DNA from: Bacteroidales bacterium
GTDB lineage: Bacteria; Bacteroidota; Bacteroidia; Bacteroidales; ML635J-15
Assembly: GCA_963676165.1 (NCBI GenBank)
Contig: OY781043.1
Location: forward strand, 2,122,793-2,186,792
Direction of reading: 5' to 3'
Length of the DNA stretch: 64,000 nt
Shown: piece by piece, positions 37,832 through 46,570 of the stretch
Layout: each line of letters begins with the position of its first letter
How positions within the stretch are numbered: position 1 is the first letter of the stretch
The notes under the pieces: generated by a model
What the model was told of the DNA's origin: nothing
The model's database searches: none
The model's input: only the letters and a program-made list of their open reading frames with translations
Made by a program: the position numbers and the translations under genes

Positions 37832-37906
37832 AAAAAAAGCGACTATCGCCGCTTTAAATGTTTTCACAACGGAATAATCCTTATTGCGATTTGCTTTCAA
37901 AATGTA
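37832..37906 (-). ncRNA. tracrRNA of the type II-C system
   Basis: Minus strand reads TACATTTTGAAAGCAAATCGCAAT-AAGGATTATTCCGTTGTGAAAACATTT-AAAGCGGCGATAGTCGCTTTTTTT. The anti-repeat (37883-37906) matches 20 of the first 24 nt of the repeat, with two differences giving G.U pairs. It ends in a hairpin plus U-tract. Confidence 0.9.
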
Positions 37907-37942: not shown

Positions 37943-40900
37943 ATGAGCAAAAAAATATTAGGACTCGACTTAGGAACCAACAGCATTGGTTGGGCGTTGG
38001 TTGATCAAGATTTCGAAAACAAAAATGGAAATATTGACGGGCTGGGGAGTAGAATTATCCCGATGAGTCAGGATATCCTTGGCAATTTTGATGCCGGACA
38101 ATCTCACTCACAAACTGCTGACAGAACAAGCTACAGGGGCATTCGCAGATTGTACCAAAGAAATAATTTAAGACGAGAAAGATTGCATAGAGTATTAAAT
38201 ATCTTAGGTTTTTTACCAGAACATTATGCAGACAATATTGACTTTAACAACAAATTGGGACAATTTAAACCAAATACCGAGGTCAAATTAAATTATTGTA
38301 AAAATTCAGATGGTAAATATGAGTTTATTTTCAAAAACTCATTTTACGAAATGATGAATGAATTTAAACAAAAGCAACCAGAGCTATTCTACACGAACAA
38401 CAAAGGAGTTGAAACAAAAATACCATATGACTGGACAATCTATTATTTAAGAAAAAAAGCATTAACAAACAGAATTACCAAAGAGGAGTTGGCTTGGCTA
38501 ATATTGAACTTCAATCAAAAGCGTGGATATTATCAACTAAGAGGAGAAGATATTGAAGAGGATAAAAACAAACAATTCGTTCAATTAAAGGTAAAAGAAC
38601 TAGTTGACACAGGCGGTGAAGTTAAAGGCAAAAAACTATATGATGTTATTTTTGAAAATGGTTGGAAATATGATCGTCAAATTGTTAAAACAGAAGATTG
38701 GATAGACCGCACAAAGGAATTTATTGTTACAATTTCAACATTAAAAACTGGAGAACTAAAATATTCTTACAAAGCTGTTGATTCTGAAAAGGATTGGATT
38801 GCAATAAAAACAAAAACAGAACAAGACATTGAAAAATCTGACAAAACTGTAGGACAATATATATACGACACATTACTGGATAATCCAACTCAAAAAATAA
38901 GAGGAAGTTTAGTAAAAACTATTGAACGCAAGTTTTATAAAGAAGAATTTAAACAAATACTTACAAAACAAATTGAATTACAACCCGACTTATTTACGGA
39001 CGAAAAATATCTAAAATGTGTTGAAGAGTTATATCCAAGAAATGAAGCACACCAGAACAGTATTAAACAACTTGGTTTTTTGTATTTATTCATGGATGAC
39101 ATTATTTTTTATCAACGTCCATTAAAGAGTCAAAAATCTAACATTTCAGGTTGTCAGTTAGAATTTCGCAAATACAAACGAAAAAACAGCGAAACAGGGA
39201 TTGAAGAGACAATCAAGGAACCAATAAAAGCGATTTCAAAATCGCATCCTCTCTTTCAAGAATTCAGGACTTGGCAATGGATACAAAACCTGCGCATTTA
39301 TGACACTACAGGATTAATGTCAGACATAACAAAAGAGCTCCTAAAGCATGAAAACGATTGGGTTGAACTATTTGAGTTTTTACAATCTAAAAAAGAAGTT
39401 GAACAGAAACATATAATCAAATACTTTATTGATAAGAAACTAATTGACAAAGCAAATAAAGAAAATTACCGTTGGAATTATGTTGAAGATAAAAAATATC
39501 CATTTGCTGAAACTCATTCACAATTTATAAATCGTTTAAAAAAGATACCAGGCATCAATAATCCTGAGCTTTTTCTCTCAGAAAAAACATTAGTAGGCAG
39601 TTCAGAAAATGGACAATACATTTCAAGAGAAGAACAATTATGGCACATTATTTATTCAATTTCTGATTTAAACGACTACATATCTGCCCTTGGAAAATTT
39701 GCATTAAAACATAATATAAGTAAAGAGAATTTCATAGAAAGTTTCAAAAAATTCCCTCCATTTAACAGTGATTATGCAAGCTACTCAAAAAAAGCGCTGA
39801 ATAAGTTAGTGCCACTAATGCGAATGGGAAAATACTGGAATGAAAATTTAATTAACTCGTTAGTTATAGAAAGAGCAAATTCAATTATGGAAAGAGTTAA
39901 TGCTTTGAACGTGAAGGAAGATTATTCCGAAAAAGATCTAAAGAACGCTCTTTCCCAAGTATGTGATGATGACATCAACAAACAACTTGTTAAAAGTTTC
40001 ATTCCATTTAAAGGCAAAACGCCAACAAAAGGTTTAAATACTTACCAGGCAACTTATTTGGTTTATAGAAGACATTCGGAAACAGGGGACATTCAAAAAT
40101 GGACAACTCCTGCAGACATTGACATCTTTTTAAAGAATTTCAAACAACATTCATTAAGAAATCCAATTGTAGAGCAAGTGGTAACAGAAACACTACGTGT
40201 AGTTAAAGATATTTGGAATTTTTATGGAAAAGGGGAAAAAGGATTTTTCAATGAAATACATGTTGAACTTGGCAGAGAAATGAAAAACCCTGCAGATAAG
40301 CGTAAAAGATTATCGCAAAAAAACTCGGAAAACGAAAATACAAATCACCGGATTAAAGAGTTGTTAAAGGAATTAATGGAGGATAATTCAGTTGAAGGAA
40401 ATGTCAAATCATATTCTCCAAGTCAACAAGAACTATTGAAAATATATGAAGAAGGTATCTTTCAAAACCCAAACGCTAAATATGAAAAAATTAGTGAGGA
40501 TGAAATAGCCAAAATTCGAAAAAACAGTACCCCATCACCAAAAGATATTCAACGCTACCGACTCTGGCTTGAGCAAGGTTATATATCACCATATACCGGA
40601 AAATTGATTGGATTAAGTGACTTATTCACTGAAAAATACCAAATTGAGCACATCATACCTCAATCAAGATATTTTGATAATTCACTGAGCAATAAGGTCA
40701 TATGTGAAAGTGATGTAAATCAAGACAAAGGCAATAAAACTGCTTATGAATATTTAAAAAACAACAATGGTAGTATCATAAACGGGCACAAACTGTTTTC
40801 ACTTGAAGAATACGAAACACATGTAAACAAATATTTCAAAAATAACGACCAAAAACGTAAAAACCTTTTAAGCGAAGATATCCCTGAAGGGTTTATTAAT

Positions 40901-42472
40901 CGGCAAATGAATGACAGTCGGTATATTAGTAGGTTGGTTAAAGGCTTATTGAGCAATATCGTACGTCAAGATGGTGAGCAAGAAGCTACTTCAAAGCATT
41001 TATTACCTGTAACTGGTGCTGTAACATCAAAATTGAAAAATGACTGGGGTTTAAATGACAAATGGAACGAAATTATTGCACCACGTTTTAAGCGATTAAA
41101 CGAAATAACTAAAACAAATAATTTCGGCTTTTGGGATAATGATATAAATGCATTTCGCATTCAAGTGCCCGATGAAATTAGTAAAGGCTTTAACAAAAAA
41201 CGCATCGACCATAGACACCATGCGCTTGATGCGTTAGTCATAGCATGTACAACACGAGACCACACGCATTATTTAAGTGCTTTAAATGCCGAACACGAAA
41301 ACTATAGTCTAAAGGATAAGTTGTTAGTTAAAAACAAACAAGGTGATTTTACAAAGCACTTTCAAATGCCATGGAATGGATTTGCAACAGATGCAAAGAA
41401 TGAATTAGAAAAAACCATCATCAGCTTTAAACAAAACACAAGAGTAATTAATAAAACCAATAATAAATTTTGGAGTTACAAAGATGAAAATGGCAATCTA
41501 AACATTGGTAAAGATGGAAAACAAAAAAAGAAATTACGAAAACAAACCAAAGGTGATAATTGGGCTATACGTAAGGCACTACATAAAGAAACTGTTTCTG
41601 GCGTCTATAATATAGATACACCAAAAGGGAAAATTGCCACATCAGTGCGCACTTCTCTTGCTGATATAAAGAACGAAAAGCATTTGGACAAAATTACTGA
41701 TCAAAGAATTAAGGAAGTTATTTTACCAAATCATTTAAAGAAATACTTGGATGAGAAAGGAAAACCAAAATTTGATGTTGCTTTTAGTCCGGAAGGTATA
41801 GAAGATTTAAACAAAAATATTATTGAGCTTAATAATGGCAAAAAGCATCAACCTATCCGTAAAGTTAAAATGTACGAAGTTGGTAGTAAGTTTTCCGTTT
41901 CCGAAGAAATAAACTCCGCAAAAAGTAAAAAGTATGTTGAAGCGGCTAAAGGCACAAACCTTTTCTTTGCAATTTATTGGGATGAAAAAAAGCAAAAACG
42001 GAATTACGACACTGTTCCATTAAATGAAGTCATAGCTCACCAAAAAGAGGTTGCAATTTTACCTAAAGAAGAAAGAACTCCGATTCAAGCTAAACCAGAG
42101 AAAGGAAAATTTCTATTTACCCTCTCTCCAAACGACCTAGTTTATGTCCCAACCGATGAGGAAATGGAATACCCTCACAATGTTGACTTTAATAACTTTA
42201 GCAAAGAACAAGTAAACCGATTATATAAATTCACAGATTCAAGTGACACAACAGGGAATTTTATACCCCTCTGTATCGCTAATCTAATTTTCAATCTAAA
42301 TAAAAAAGAACAAGAAAAACAAAATACTAGTTACATTATTCAAAATGAATTTGGTCTTGGAAGTCCACAATCAAAAAATCAAAAATCGTTAGATGAAATT
42401 ATGATAAAAGAAAGATGCTGGAAAATCAAAACAGATCGACTTGGAAACATTATTGATGTGATCAAAGGATAA
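37943..42472 (+). CDS. cas9: Type II-C Cas9 (large Bacteroidota type, 1509 aa)
   Basis: RuvC-I GLDLGTNSIG, Arg-rich bridge helix, RuvC-II HVELGRE, HNH YQIEHIIPQSRYFDNSLSNKV...NQDKGN, RuvC-III HRHHALDA. No csn2 or cas4 in the locus. Confidence 0.98.
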   Translation: MSKKILGLDLGTNSIGWALVDQDFENKNGNIDGLGSRIIPMSQDILGNFDAGQSHSQTADRTSYRGIRRLYQRNNLRRERLHRVLNILGFLPEHYADNIDFNNKLGQFKPNTEVKLNYCKNSDGKYEFIFKNSFYEMMNEFKQKQPELFYTNNKGVETKIPYDWTIYYLRKKALTNRITKEELAWLILNFNQKRGYYQLRGEDIEEDKNKQFVQLKVKELVDTGGEVKGKKLYDVIFENGWKYDRQIVKTEDWIDRTKEFIVTISTLKTGELKYSYKAVDSEKDWIAIKTKTEQDIEKSDKTVGQYIYDTLLDNPTQKIRGSLVKTIERKFYKEEFKQILTKQIELQPDLFTDEKYLKCVEELYPRNEAHQNSIKQLGFLYLFMDDIIFYQRPLKSQKSNISGCQLEFRKYKRKNSETGIEETIKEPIKAISKSHPLFQEFRTWQWIQNLRIYDTTGLMSDITKELLKHENDWVELFEFLQSKKEVEQKHIIKYFIDKKLIDKANKENYRWNYVEDKKYPFAETHSQFINRLKKIPGINNPELFLSEKTLVGSSENGQYISREEQLWHIIYSISDLNDYISALGKFALKHNISKENFIESFKKFPPFNSDYASYSKKALNKLVPLMRMGKYWNENLINSLVIERANSIMERVNALNVKEDYSEKDLKNALSQVCDDDINKQLVKSFIPFKGKTPTKGLNTYQATYLVYRRHSETGDIQKWTTPADIDIFLKNFKQHSLRNPIVEQVVTETLRVVKDIWNFYGKGEKGFFNEIHVELGREMKNPADKRKRLSQKNSENENTNHRIKELLKELMEDNSVEGNVKSYSPSQQELLKIYEEGIFQNPNAKYEKISEDEIAKIRKNSTPSPKDIQRYRLWLEQGYISPYTGKLIGLSDLFTEKYQIEHIIPQSRYFDNSLSNKVICESDVNQDKGNKTAYEYLKNNNGSIINGHKLFSLEEYETHVNKYFKNNDQKRKNLLSEDIPEGFINRQMNDSRYISRLVKGLLSNIVRQDGEQEATSKHLLPVTGAVTSKLKNDWGLNDKWNEIIAPRFKRLNEITKTNNFGFWDNDINAFRIQVPDEISKGFNKKRIDHRHHALDALVIACTTRDHTHYLSALNAEHENYSLKDKLLVKNKQGDFTKHFQMPWNGFATDAKNELEKTIISFKQNTRVINKTNNKFWSYKDENGNLNIGKDGKQKKKLRKQTKGDNWAIRKALHKETVSGVYNIDTPKGKIATSVRTSLADIKNEKHLDKITDQRIKEVILPNHLKKYLDEKGKPKFDVAFSPEGIEDLNKNIIELNNGKKHQPIRKVKMYEVGSKFSVSEEINSAKSKKYVEAAKGTNLFFAIYWDEKKQKRNYDTVPLNEVIAHQKEVAILPKEERTPIQAKPEKGKFLFTLSPNDLVYVPTDEEMEYPHNVDFNNFSKEQVNRLYKFTDSSDTTGNFIPLCIANLIFNLNKKEQEKQNTSYIIQNEFGLGSPQSKNQKSLDEIMIKERCWKIKTDRLGNIIDVIKG

Positions 42473-42488
42473 TACAGAGTTGTTTAAG

Positions 42489-43148
42489 ATGCATTTCAAA
42501 GAAGGACATATCTTTCACATTTACAATCAAGGGAATAATCGTCAGCTGATTTTCTTTGGGCGGGAGAATTATTTCTTCTTTTTGGATAAAATAGGTGAAC
42601 ATGTTTTCCCTTTCGGTGATATTTTTGCTTATTGCCTGATGCCGAACCACTTTCATATCATGATGCAAGTAAATTCAGTGGTTTTGGATGGTGAAACATT
42701 AGTTGAGGGAGCGACTGCCTTTACTCGGAGCGCGACTCAGAGTCGCACTTCGAGTAAAGGTAGCAGGGAAAGACGCAACCCCAAAATCACGAATTTAAAC
42801 AAGGAAATCGGAATAATGCTGGCTTCCTACACCAGGGCAATCAATAAACAAAATGGCTGGTCGGGATCTTTATTTCGACAGAAAACCAAAGCAGAATGCC
42901 TTACCGAGATCAGCGACATTACACCTTCTTTTTACAATACGGATTCAGGCACAAGAATTCATCTTCCGAATCCAAAGTCAAATTATCCTCAGAACTGCTT
43001 TGATTACATTCACAACAATCCAGTTAAAGCAGGTTTGGTAAGAAAACCTGAGGATTGGGAATTTTCATCTTACCTCAATTATTATGAAAATACGGAAAAT
43101 TCATTGATCAACCAATATGCGGCAAGAAATGCTGGCCTTCGATATTAA
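42489..43148 (+). CDS. REP-associated tyrosine transposase (RAYT; HUH/Y1, IS200/IS605 superfamily) between cas9 and cas1
   Basis: FHIYNQGNNRQ.IF, AYCLMPNHFH (HUH), SGSLF and YIHNNPVKAG...W.FSSY (catalytic Tyr region); intact ORF. ATG 42489, or alternative TTG 42480. Confidence 0.9.
   Translation: MHFKEGHIFHIYNQGNNRQLIFFGRENYFFFLDKIGEHVFPFGDIFAYCLMPNHFHIMMQVNSVVLDGETLVEGATAFTRSATQSRTSSKGSRERRNPKITNLNKEIGIMLASYTRAINKQNGWSGSLFRQKTKAECLTEISDITPSFYNTDSGTRIHLPNPKSNYPQNCFDYIHNNPVKAGLVRKPEDWEFSSYLNYYENTENSLINQYAARNAGLRY
42715..42763. repeat. 49-bp REP-like imperfect palindrome inside the RAYT coding sequence
   Basis: CTGCCTTTACTCGGAGCGCGACTC-A-GAGTCGCACTTCGAGTAAAGGTAG; 21 of 24 arm positions are complementary. 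Confidence 0.85.
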
Positions 43149-43202
43149 TTATTGTCACTCGAATTAAATTTCAAAAGCATCATAAACTAAAATATTCGCA
43201 TT

Positions 43203-44436
<1,234 letters not shown>

Positions 44437-44558: not shown

Positions 44559-46570
44559 GTTGTAATTCAATACGTCAAAGATACAAATTGAAAGCAAATC
44601 ACAACTGATAAGGCATATATTAGAAATTTGAGTATGTTGTAATTCAATACGTCAAAGATACAAATTGAAAGCAAATCACAACAAAACTTGTAGCGAAAAC
44701 TGCCAATAAAATGTTGTAATTCAATACGTCAAAGATACAAATTGAAAGCAAATCACAACTGCATCTTCAATACTTTCGCATTGCCAATCCGTTGTAATTC
44801 AATACGTCAAAGATACAAATTGAAAGCAAATCACAACATTATACTGAATTTTTTAAAAATCTCTTAGTTGTAATTCAATACGTCAAAGATACAAATTGAA
44901 AGCAAATCACAACTACTGATTTTTCTGATTTTACTTCTTTTTGTTGTAATTCAATACGTCAAAGATACAAATTGAAAGCAAATCACAACTCTCCACTATC
45001 TAAATCATCCAATGTACCTGTTGTAATTCAATACGTCAAAGATACAAATTGAAAGCAAATCACAACGGTATTGGTTGCATCCAGTTAAGTAAAAGCGTTG
45101 TAATTCAATACGTCAAAGATACAAATTGAAAGCAAATCACAACATTGGGAGCGCATTGTATTTTGTTTGATAAGTTGTAATTCAATACGTCAAAGATACA
45201 AATTGAAAGCAAATCACAACAGATAGTTGCCATTTTCTTCTTGTTCTCGTGTTGTAATTCAATACGTCAAAGATACAAATTGAAAGCAAATCACAACCTA
45301 AAAGCTTGTTTTTTTCATTTTGATAGAGTTGTAATTCAATACGTCAAAGATACAAATTGAAAGCAAATCACAACTAGAGATCATACACGGCTTTAAATGA
45401 TTCGTTGTAATTCAATACGTCAAAGATACAAATTGAAAGCAAATCACAACATGAAAGTCATATGGTAAAAAATCCAATTGGTTGTAATTCAATACGTCAA
45501 AGATACAAATTGAAAGCAAATCACAACTAACACCTCTGTATCTCTTTCCATATGGAAGTTGTAATTCAATACGTCAAAGATACAAATTGAAAGCAAATCA
45601 CAACAAATAAATGAGCTTCTCGCACTCCAGATTGGTTGTAATTCAATACGTCAAAGATACAAATTGAAAGCAAATCACAACATAATATCCATTTGTAAAT
45701 ACATACGTATTGTTGTAATTCAATACGTCAAAGATACAAATTGAAAGCAAATCACAACTAACACCTCTGTATCTCTTTCCATATGGAAGTTGTAATTCAA
45801 TACGTCAAAGATACAAATTGAAAGCAAATCACAACAAATAAATGAGCTTCTCGCACTCCAGATTGGTTGTAATTCAATACGTCAAAGATACAAATTGAAA
45901 GCAAATCACAACGATCTTTCTAATGTCTTGTAACCTGGTATTGTTGTAATTCAATACGTCAAAGATACAAATTGAAAGCAAATCACAACAACATTTAATT
46001 AATTACTACATGACAAATAGTTGTAATTCAATACGTCAAAGATACAAATTGAAAGCAAATCACAACCTTCTGTGCTTAATTCAAATTTTGTGCTTCGTTG
46101 TAATTCAATACGTCAAAGATACAAATTGAAAGCAAATCACAACTGCATCTTCAATACTTTCGCATTGCCAATCCGTTGTAATTCAATACGTCAAAGATAC
46201 AAATTGAAAGCAAATCACAACATTATACTGAATTTTTTAAAAATCTCTTAGTTGTAATTCAATACGTCAAAGATACAAATTGAAAGCAAATCACAACTAC
46301 TGATTTTTCTGATTTTACTTCTTTTTGTTGTAATTCAATACGTCAAAGATACAAATTGAAAGCAAATCACAACTGAGACGTCCTGTCGGAGCCATTGTAA
46401 AAGTTGTAATTCAATACGTCAAAGATACAAATTGAAAGCAAATCACAACCCGGAATCTTTCCTGATAATTTCAATATGGGTTGTAATTCAATACATCAAA
46501 CCTGCCAGCCTACTAAAAAATAATATGGCAGGCTGGGATACATTTTGAAAGCGACGTAGGAGATTCACGA
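44559..46570 (-). CRISPR. CRISPR array: 25 identical 47-nt repeats, 25 spacers of 29-31 nt (20 unique), and one disrupted terminal repeat
   Basis: Plus-strand repeat GTTGTAATTCAATACGTCAAAGATACAAATTGAAAGCAAATCACAAC; first copy 44559-44605, last intact copy 46403-46449, broken copy from 46480. Minus-strand transcription is inferred from tracrRNA complementarity. Confidence 0.98.

Follow-up and report, generated by a model that had tools for sequence, protein, structure and literature searches.

Architecture of the locus

The present report deals with a gene for a presumptive REP-associated tyrosine transposase (RAYT; REP, repetitive extragenic palindrome) inside a CRISPR locus of type II-C. It was found in a Bacteroidales bacterium, in a stretch of 64,000 nucleotides (assembly GCA_963676165.1, contig OY781043.1, positions 2,122,793 to 2,186,792 of the forward strand) that is called the window hereafter; the genome to which the window belongs, 3.94 Mb in size, is denoted G000. 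The gene occupies the space between cas9 and cas1, and the whole locus reads cas9-RAYT-cas1-cas2-array. An initial annotation, made from the letters of the window alone, had described this gene order on one strand, with gaps of 16 nt and 54 nt on the two sides of the gene and no terminator; order, strand and gaps match the sequence, and a terminator scan of the plus strand found no terminator-like site from the cas9 stop to the start of cas1 (42473–43202). The start coordinate given there, 42473, is the first base past the cas9 stop; the gene itself starts at 42489, and an alternative in-frame TTG start at 42480, upstream of this ATG, is unsupported by the alignment of homologues. Judging from the spacing and the missing terminator, the RAYT is probably transcribed as part of a cas9-RAYT-cas1-cas2 operon.

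RAYTs are widespread single-copy "domesticated transposases", whose chemistry is known and whose cellular role has been a question since their discovery; type II-C systems do without the accessory adaptation proteins found in types II-A and II-B. The features of the locus are compiled in Table 1. A cas9, a cas1, a cas2, an array and a predicted anti-repeat are present, with neither csn2 nor cas4, in agreement with type II-C. The cas9 product also matches NCBIfam TIGR01865 (6.2e-127). Just past the candidate anti-repeat, a terminator-like hairpin predicted on the minus strand (37855–37836) fits the expectation for a trans-activating CRISPR RNA (tracrRNA), and the array ends in a 26th, degenerate copy of the repeat that starts at 46480.

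Table 1. Features of the type II-C locus in the window (positions counted from the first base of the window; G009 is a second genome of the same genus; ssDNA, single-stranded DNA)
Feature	Position	Strand	Basis
Candidate tracrRNA anti-repeat, upstream of cas9	37884–37906	−	20/23 matches to repeat, local alignment
cas9, type II-C, 1509 aa	37943–42472	+	Pfam RuvC_III 2.2e-54, HNH_4 6.1e-22, Cas9-BH 2e-11
cas9-RAYT spacer, 16 nt; also 3′ edge of the G000/G009 exchange	42473–42488	+	
RAYT-like HUH/Y1 gene, ATG start, 219 aa + stop	42489–43148	+	
HUH motif N53-H54-F55-H56	42645–42656	+	Sequence and homologue alignment
In-frame REP-type hairpin, 22-bp stem, core GCGACT-CAGA-GTCGC	42715–42763		ssDNA fold
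Catalytic Tyr motif Y173-I-H-N-N-P178	43005–43022	+	Sequence and alignment with Tyr helix of 4er8
RAYT-cas1 spacer, 54 nt, without hairpin or terminator	43149–43202	+	Sequence, terminator scan, folding
cas1, type II, 304 aa, ATG at 43203	43203–44117	+	TIGR03639 cas1_NMENI 1.9e-90; Pfam Cas_Cas1
cas2, 112 aa	44098–44436	+	Pfam CRISPR_Cas2 1.1e-19; TIGR01573
CRISPR array, 25 identical 47-nt repeats, 29–31-nt spacers	44559–46449	+	

The RAYT-like protein

The HUH motif (NHFH) and the tyrosine motif, which the initial annotation had reported as intact, are both in place (Table 1). Among 63 aligned homologues, N53, H54 and F55 of the former show no variation and H56 reaches a conservation of at least 90%, Y173, I174 and N177 of the latter are invariant, and the HUH and Y-I-H-x-N-P motifs are kept in nearly all full-length homologues aligned. 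NCBIfam NF047646 (REP_Tyr_transpos) scores 50.6 bits (1.7e-13), which is below its threshold of 80 bits, and the match falls in two stretches because in-frame insertions split it. Pfam gave no match to the protein even at E = 10, Y1_Tnp (PF01797) included, and the PADLOC defence annotation had no match for either RAYT type. The sole sequence match in the PDB was E. coli TnpA-REP (4er8_A, E = 0.015), across the Tyr helix.

An AlphaFold2 model based on the 63 homologues reached a mean predicted local distance difference test score (pLDDT) of 85.4 and a predicted template modelling score (pTM) of 0.82, with two low-confidence insertions at residues 76–84 (pLDDT below 50) and 147–155. In a Foldseek search of this model, 4er8_A ranked best (E = 3e-6), followed by the TnpA chains of IS608, ISDra2 and IS200; the HUH and Tyr helices align with those of the E. 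coli protein, from which the window's RAYT differs by its two low-confidence insertions and by an identity of just 13% in the structural alignment. Because the motifs are kept and the model matches TnpA-REP, the open reading frame (ORF) is, as far as sequence and model tell, an intact RAYT-like HUH/Y1 enzyme, and the earlier identification of a RAYT embedded in a cas operon is thereby supported. The genome of 3.94 Mb holds one copy of this gene, together with two paralogues at 23–27% identity.

Recurrence of the arrangement in Bacteroidales

A survey of Y1 genes near cas1, which the initial annotation had proposed, was carried out on 401 genomes of the window's order, G000 included. A type II cas1 match was obtained in 141 of these genomes, and the RAYT clade of the window's gene, referred to as clade A, is present in 56. 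In 26 genomes, G000 among them, its members are the immediate upstream neighbours of cas1 (27 loci), one genome having two such loci, of which one holds tandem RAYTs; in single further genomes clade A was found upstream of cas9 and after cas9 at a contig end. A second lineage, B, with 27–39% identity to the window's protein, sits among the matches listed upstream of cas1 in seven genomes and between cas1 and cas2 in one, and in the window's own family it takes the same slot in five genomes more. A further 52 cas1 loci without a listed RAYT match were mapped, a non-random sample from the top of the cas1-match table: cas9 abuts cas1 in 34 of them, at a distance of −32 to 103 nt, the two genes are 0.45–1.05 kb apart in 8, 7 are without cas9 within about 2.4 kb, and 3 have a further RAYT-like gene. 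A third RAYT lineage, C, is represented by two of the ORFs in these gaps, recognized by Pfam Y1_Tnp for one of them and by NCBIfam REP_Tyr_transpos with 66.6 and 58.8 bits.

Taken together, a Y1 gene stands beside cas1 in at least 39 of the 141 type II cas1 genomes, or 28%, a lower bound that 53 unmapped cas1 loci and 132 further search rows could raise; three divergent RAYT lineages are involved, and all of the genes share the orientation of cas1. Within the window's family the share is 8 of the 12 genomes with cas1. For clade A, 28 of 71 rows of the search are adjacent to cas1, compared with about one gene in several thousand by chance. In a GTDB-wide scan, 13 of the best 78 loci lie in a cas context, all of them in Bacteroidales-type records, and none of the rows from Chitinophagales, Cytophagales, Saprospiraceae, Balneolaceae and Flavobacteriaceae among these 78 does so. 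The related loci come from Bacteroidales, Lentimicrobiaceae, Rikenellaceae, Prolixibacteraceae and Marinilabilia records. In type II-C loci of Bacteroidales, the arrangement thus recurs across the lineage.

Several individual loci deserve mention in their own right. Among cultured carriers, Marinilabilia salmonicolor MSL42 (L134) and Carboxylicivirga caseinilyticus A049 (L126) may serve as examples. In G282, two tandem RAYTs precede cas1 (L027:3852-5200) and a third copy is found in a second II-C locus; in G394 (L044), a second RAYT copy lies downstream of the array; and in G254 (L183, G254:C313), a RAYT-like gene is placed between cas1 and cas2. Runs of X in the RAYT translations of L016 and L047 stem from masked (N) bases and not from truncation, and for this reason the seemingly truncated RAYT of G016, 153 aa long, is no evidence of decay.

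Where extra genes are present, they sit between cas9 and the RAYT (L026, L028, L036, L042, L090), and no extra gene between RAYT and cas1 was found among the mapped loci. Lineage-B genes overlap the start of cas1 by 4–7 nt (L087, L088, L090, L176), which argues for long residence and integration into the operon. The cas9-cas1 slot as such is a variable accessory site (L026, L036, L042, L090, L183–L185, L194, L197, L201, L204, L206, L214, L225, L227). Its recurrent occupants include ATPases of the ATPase_2/AAA_14 type, nucleotidyltransferases (DUF6036/DUF2204), a Cys-rich zinc-finger-like protein and a family of small proteins that have the N-terminal domain of PRiA4_ORF3-like proteins in common with these; RhuM, Bro-N and an HNH-like gene were met in single cases. 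The initial annotation had named the absence of the gene from close relatives, or unrelated genes in its place, as an observation that would speak against a role in the CRISPR system. Such is in part the situation: in canonical relatives cas9 abuts cas1, or the slot holds unrelated genes.

Linkage to cas1-cas2

A comparison within the genus shows to which side of the locus the gene belongs. G009 has the same arrangement as G000 and an unrelated cas9: the two cas9 genes (window 37943–42472 and L015:234-4484) share about 40% identity in DNA and 26–34% in protein. The 5′ part of the RAYT, in turn, is 70–80% identical in DNA, cas1 66–83% (87.5% in protein) and cas2 82–89% (97% in protein), and the 47-nt CRISPR repeat is nearly identical. 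Along the alignment, DNA identity climbs from about 40% to 73–80% at 42473–42488. As identity is low in cas9 and high in RAYT, cas1, cas2 and repeat, the boundary of the exchange lies at the cas9/RAYT junction; the pair represents an in-situ replacement of cas9 within one genus, with its edge at the cas9 stop. In-situ shuffling of cas9 next to a conserved cas1 is known from Flavobacteriales, according to the legend of Extended Data Fig. 9 in Makarova et al. 2025.

On a Cas1 tree of 97 loci the presence of a Y1 gene is clustered, with 22 changes compared with a mean of 32.6 in shuffled trees and a lowest value of 25 in 300 shuffles, a clustering that is inflated by kinship. The Cas1 clade nearest the window's contains both A-type and B-type RAYTs; hence a RAYT of one lineage has taken the place of that of another in this slot. 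The RAYT belongs to the cas1-cas2, that is, the adaptation side of the locus. It had been suggested early on that the gene might be tied to the ancestry of Cas9 in IscB of IS200-type elements. This idea finds no support, since a swap of cas9 leaves the gene together with cas1-cas2, and since the association was seen only in Bacteroidales-type records.

REP hairpins inside and around the gene

A strong REP-type hairpin, overlooked in the initial annotation, lies within the ORF (Table 1). Folded as ssDNA, it attains −19.1 kcal/mol on the plus strand (z −4.94, none of 200 shuffles folding as well) and −18.5 on the minus strand (z −5.40). It comprises nucleotides 227–275 of the ORF and encodes a disordered, low-confidence linker after the HUH strand. 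Genome-wide it is the only strong copy; of three matches to its core in the 3.94 Mb, the other two are weak. A GC-rich hairpin at the equivalent place was found in 23 of 28 cas1-adjacent and 23 of 39 stand-alone clade-A rows, 46 of 67 together. The sequence of this hairpin varies among lineages and, within one locus, matches that of the hairpins flanking the gene; the three RAYT lineages carry different ones (GGGGTGACT.., TTCCAAAGTT.., GGGGCGGGTTC..).

For the flanks of the window's gene, the initial annotation was right in reporting neither REP hairpins nor insertion sequence (IS) ends, because these flanks fold no better than shuffles (z +0.56 to +0.97). The RAYTs of the window and of G009 have lost all flanking hairpins, and the genes are still intact. 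Elsewhere the distribution differs from genome to genome: in G318 the hairpin constitutes a dispersed family, of whose 19 copies the CRISPR locus holds 4, those of G387, G200 and G241 are all within the CRISPR locus, and G000 has none of the type seen in these four genomes. In G200, a RAYT-type REP hairpin was also located between cas1 and cas2 (G200:C40:25468-25488). A solitary GC-rich REP-type hairpin stands at the start of a 523-nt, RAYT-less cas9-cas1 gap in G308 (L218:2102-2136), and may be the remnant of a lost REP-RAYT unit.

A palindrome of a different kind, AT-rich and about 50 nt long (arms GCTTTTGGCATGAATTTTTGC / GCAAAAATCATGTCCAAAAGC), is dispersed between genes of G000 in 26 approximate and 13 exact copies (e.g. 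C1 333100-333146 and 2082930-2082975), none of them in the window. Its other occurrences in the genus are one copy each in G009 and G005, so that G000 has it almost to itself. It was set aside; it lies near none of the three Y1 genes of the genome and is unlike the GC-rich REP type.

Selection, copy number and fusions

Purifying selection was found in the three pairs of copies with dS below 0.7, to which the ratio of nonsynonymous to synonymous substitution rates (dN/dS) was restricted because pairs with dS above 1 are saturated. The three copies of G282, the tandem ones included, gave dN/dS values of 0.12 and 0.15 (dS 0.27 and 0.41), and the two copies of G394 a value of 0.26 (dS 0.65). Clade A is represented by one or two copies per genome; given this low copy number and the age of the paralogues (dS 0.27–0.65), there is no sign of active transposition. 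As a side observation, members of the RAYT family at 43–50% identity form part of larger proteins together with a PIF1-like helicase and the domains HRDC and HTH_40 (L122:726-3821, P0121–P0135). These proteins, of about 1030 aa in total, come from Flavobacteriaceae-type records, and their HUH-plus-helicase architecture recalls, by analogy, that of rolling-circle Rep-helicase proteins.

Comparison with known systems

The closest description in the literature is that of TnpA-REP subclass 2.4, which Quentin 2018 (bioRxiv 10.1101/279083) equates with group 4 of the RAYTs in Bertels et al. 2017. In the text of this preprint, the subclass is described as abundant in Bacteroidetes and Cyanobacteria, with a variable insertion between β3 and αC and with in-frame REP insertions inside the gene. 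The window's RAYT has the HUH and single-Tyr motifs, the low copy number, and the variable insertion between HUH strand (β3) and αC with an in-frame REP hairpin; REP hairpins flank the gene in most of its relatives, which are found in Bacteroidota, with some cyanobacterial matches. In contrast to the subclass, the window's copy is without flanking REP and without dispersed copies of the hairpin in the genome. The enzyme therefore appears to show the published features of subclass 2.4, a likeness by features and not by the authors' profiles. The word "CRISPR" does not occur in the text of that preprint, and a location between cas9 and cas1 is not described there.

Accessory genes within type II-C loci have a precedent in PcrIIC1, one of several "novel associated genes" of such loci (Zhang et al. 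2024, Nature), which is presented in papers citing that work as a PIN-domain protein that binds the C-terminal helix of Cas9; the same source indicates that such genes can enhance Cas9 immunity. The RAYT resembles PcrIIC1, as there described, in being an accessory gene inside a type II-C locus; it differs from this PIN protein by its predicted HUH/Y1 fold, by its PDB matches, which are to TnpA only, and by tracking cas1 and not cas9. A "Y1 TPase" is listed among putative CRISPR auxiliary genes in the legend of Fig. 6D of Altae-Tran et al. 2023 (PMC10910872). Unlike the window's RAYT, it is a larger gene of about 1 kb and carries the label "Y1 TPase type III" in the supplement, from which label it appears linked to another CRISPR type.

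TnpA of IS200/IS605 elements belongs to the same HUH/Y1 superfamily. An IS200/IS605 insertion sequence was rejected as an explanation of the gene, which has no flanking structure, is present in a single copy and has no tnpB/iscB-like ORF beside it. CRISPR-associated transposons of the Tn7-like and Mu-like kinds have the theme of a transposase in a CRISPR locus in common with the window, and those known are characterized by DDE transposases and nuclease-deficient effectors, as stated in Altae-Tran et al. 2023 (PMC10910872). The window's locus does not qualify as such a transposon: its Cas9 matches the RuvC_III and HNH_4 families, cas1-cas2 is present, and no element ends were found. The enzyme family, intragenic REP hairpins and accessory genes in II-C loci are thus already known. 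A RAYT in a type II locus was not described in the full-text literature searched, a search that did not take in the gene list of Zhang et al. 2024, where this gene may already appear.

The CRISPR arrays

In the array of the window (spacers at 44606–46402), two blocks of spacers are duplicated, spacers 3–5 being identical to 21–23 and spacers 13–14 to 16–17. Duplicated spacers are absent from 22 of 26 RAYT-bearing arrays and number 1–5 in the other four; leaving aside the window's array, there are 1–2 in three and none in the rest. No general rise of spacer duplication is seen in RAYT-bearing arrays, with only three RAYT-less arrays for comparison. The CRISPR repeat was considered as a candidate substrate and set aside, since it folds weakly as ssDNA (dG −3.3, z −1.38) and bears no likeness to the REP hairpins. 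A second CRISPR array of the genome lies outside the window (G000:C1, about 3126847–3131700) and is made up of a repeat, about 30 nt long, that occurs 75 times with a period of about 65 nt.

Origin and possible role of the cas1-adjacent RAYTs

The occurrence of 28 of 71 clade-A copies in the slot, together with three lineages that carry different hairpins, calls for either selection for the position or targeted insertion. Selection is favoured because targeting would have to act independently of the hairpin sequence, because some copies are translationally coupled to cas1, and because the copies of the window and of G009 have remained intact despite the loss of all flanking hairpins. We tentatively prefer, at somewhat short of even chances, the reading that the position directly 5′ of cas1 has time and again gained REP-RAYT units by recruitment and kept them, since there co-expression with Cas1-Cas2 would be advantageous. 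By analogy with E. coli TnpA-REP and IS608, the enzyme would bind a DNA hairpin in ssDNA and cut and rejoin the strand beside it, the cut proceeding by way of a covalent 5′-phosphotyrosine link; what appears to be its cognate hairpin is carried in frame within its own gene. The likeliest benefit might then be that of an ssDNA nuclease by which the DNA for new spacers is provided or trimmed, Cas4 and Csn2 being absent from this subtype; alternatively, the REP hairpins might tune the expression of cas1-cas2 relative to that of cas9. In the more specific form of this proposal, RAYT-type HUH nucleases would be accessory enzymes of II-C adaptation in Bacteroidales, recruited at least three times independently and making or trimming ssDNA or hairpin DNA for Cas1-Cas2, and would fill the place held by Cas4 or Csn2 in other type II subtypes. 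In this form it is rather unlikely.

Quite a number of observations weigh against recruitment by selection, and most of them favour a site-preferring passenger, namely a REP-RAYT unit, selfish or host-domesticated, with a CRISPR-independent job that again and again lands, or is tolerated by preference, in the variable slot 5′ of cas1, is transcribed by read-through and has no role in immunity. Clade A is not confined to CRISPR loci: 39 of its 71 rows stand alone among unrelated housekeeping genes such as those for tRNA synthetases, metabolic enzymes and transporters, 18 of its 56 carrier genomes have no type II cas1 match, and cas1 is about equally frequent in carriers of stand-alone copies (10 of 28) and in non-carriers (103 of 345). 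The RAYT tree interleaves embedded and stand-alone rows, with 20 changes of context compared with a shuffled mean of 22.4, at least 8 of which are forced by well-supported branches. It appears to follow host taxonomy and not Cas1 or Cas9, as would be expected of a gene that has moved about inside its hosts and has not been transferred along with cas1. The RAYT of the window is joined first by that of G009 and then by three stand-alone copies from the same genus (99*), and two other embedded RAYTs pair with stand-alone copies of the same host family. The initial annotation had held that nearest homologues in non-CRISPR surroundings would count against its proposal; apart from the cas-embedded copy of G009, the nearest are indeed stand-alone copies from the same genus.

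At least one flanking REP hairpin accompanies 18 of 28 embedded copies, as against 25 of 39 stand-alone ones, just as in ordinary RAYTs, and it is of the same type as the intragenic one; the 19 dispersed copies in G318 point in the same direction. The slot also takes many unrelated genes, including a copy of an IS3-type transposase in L028. Among longer proteins, no fusion of a RAYT to a Cas protein was found in 16 matches, 15 of which are fusions to PIF1 helicase. The congruence of RAYT, Cas1 and Cas9 trees that had been proposed as a check was not detectable over 23 loci (Mantel r = 0.11, p = 0.18 for RAYT and Cas1; r = −0.21 for RAYT and Cas9), in a test with little power at these divergences, since Cas1 and Cas9 are uncorrelated as well (r = 0.02). 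A passenger explains better than selection does why the RAYT tree tracks the hosts, why REP hairpins are retained and why there are copies without CRISPR. A passenger, however, would need hairpin-independent targeting to bring three lineages with different hairpins to the same position, and the one or two copies per genome with their old paralogues show no sign of active transposition. The overlaps of lineage-B genes with cas1 point to long residence, the hairpins of G387, G200 and G241 leave no dispersed REP population to be maintained, and the copies of the window and of G009 are intact though their flanking hairpins are gone. On balance such a passenger is the main rival of the preferred reading, a serious possibility that falls clearly short of being probable.

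Two further explanations assign the enzyme a more active part in the locus. The initial annotation had thought of a CRISPR-associated ssDNA transposase, i.e. of a RAYT that works with Cas9 in interference by cutting or transferring the displaced strand of the R-loop. The position next to cas9 and the general need of HUH enzymes for ssDNA are in its favour, but the RAYT was kept while cas9 was replaced by a merely 26–34% identical one, the neighbouring Cas9 proteins vary widely (1239–1833 aa, 39–1867 bits to the window's Cas9), the distance correlation of RAYT and Cas9 is negative, other genes intervene between cas9 and RAYT in several loci, and the matched RuvC and HNH families, the cas1-cas2 pair and the array are unlike those of known CRISPR-associated transposons. 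A partnership with Cas9 is therefore very improbable. Very unlikely, too, is an action of RAYT and REP hairpins on the DNA of the CRISPR locus itself, by exchange of cas9 cassettes or rearrangement of repeats and spacers. It would account for the exact coincidence of the cas9/RAYT junction with the 3′ end of the cas9 exchange that separates G000 from G009, for the duplicated spacer blocks of the window's array and for cas9 shuffling next to a conserved cas1 in Flavobacteriales, although the legend in Makarova et al. 2025 describes this shuffling without mention of a RAYT; against it stand the 22 of 26 RAYT-bearing arrays without duplicated spacers, next to a control of three RAYT-less arrays, and a CRISPR repeat whose weak fold is unlike the REP hairpins.

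Of the interpretation put forward initially, the intact embedded RAYT and its association with the cas genes have stood up, the latter as a recurrent one, and the tie to IscB has not. Returning to the preferred reading, if REP-RAYT units are indeed selected for next to cas1, the locus would offer a testable setting for RAYT function, and Cas9 systems might have a new factor in adaptation or regulation. If the gene is instead a site-preferring passenger, a REP-RAYT unit would here, as a rare case, have a defined genomic address, with a bearing on how RAYTs move; a REP-RAYT unit homing site-specifically to the 5′ end of cas1 would, if true, be equally new. Either an accessory enzyme of adaptation or a homing unit would, if true, provide the first defined functional context for RAYTs.

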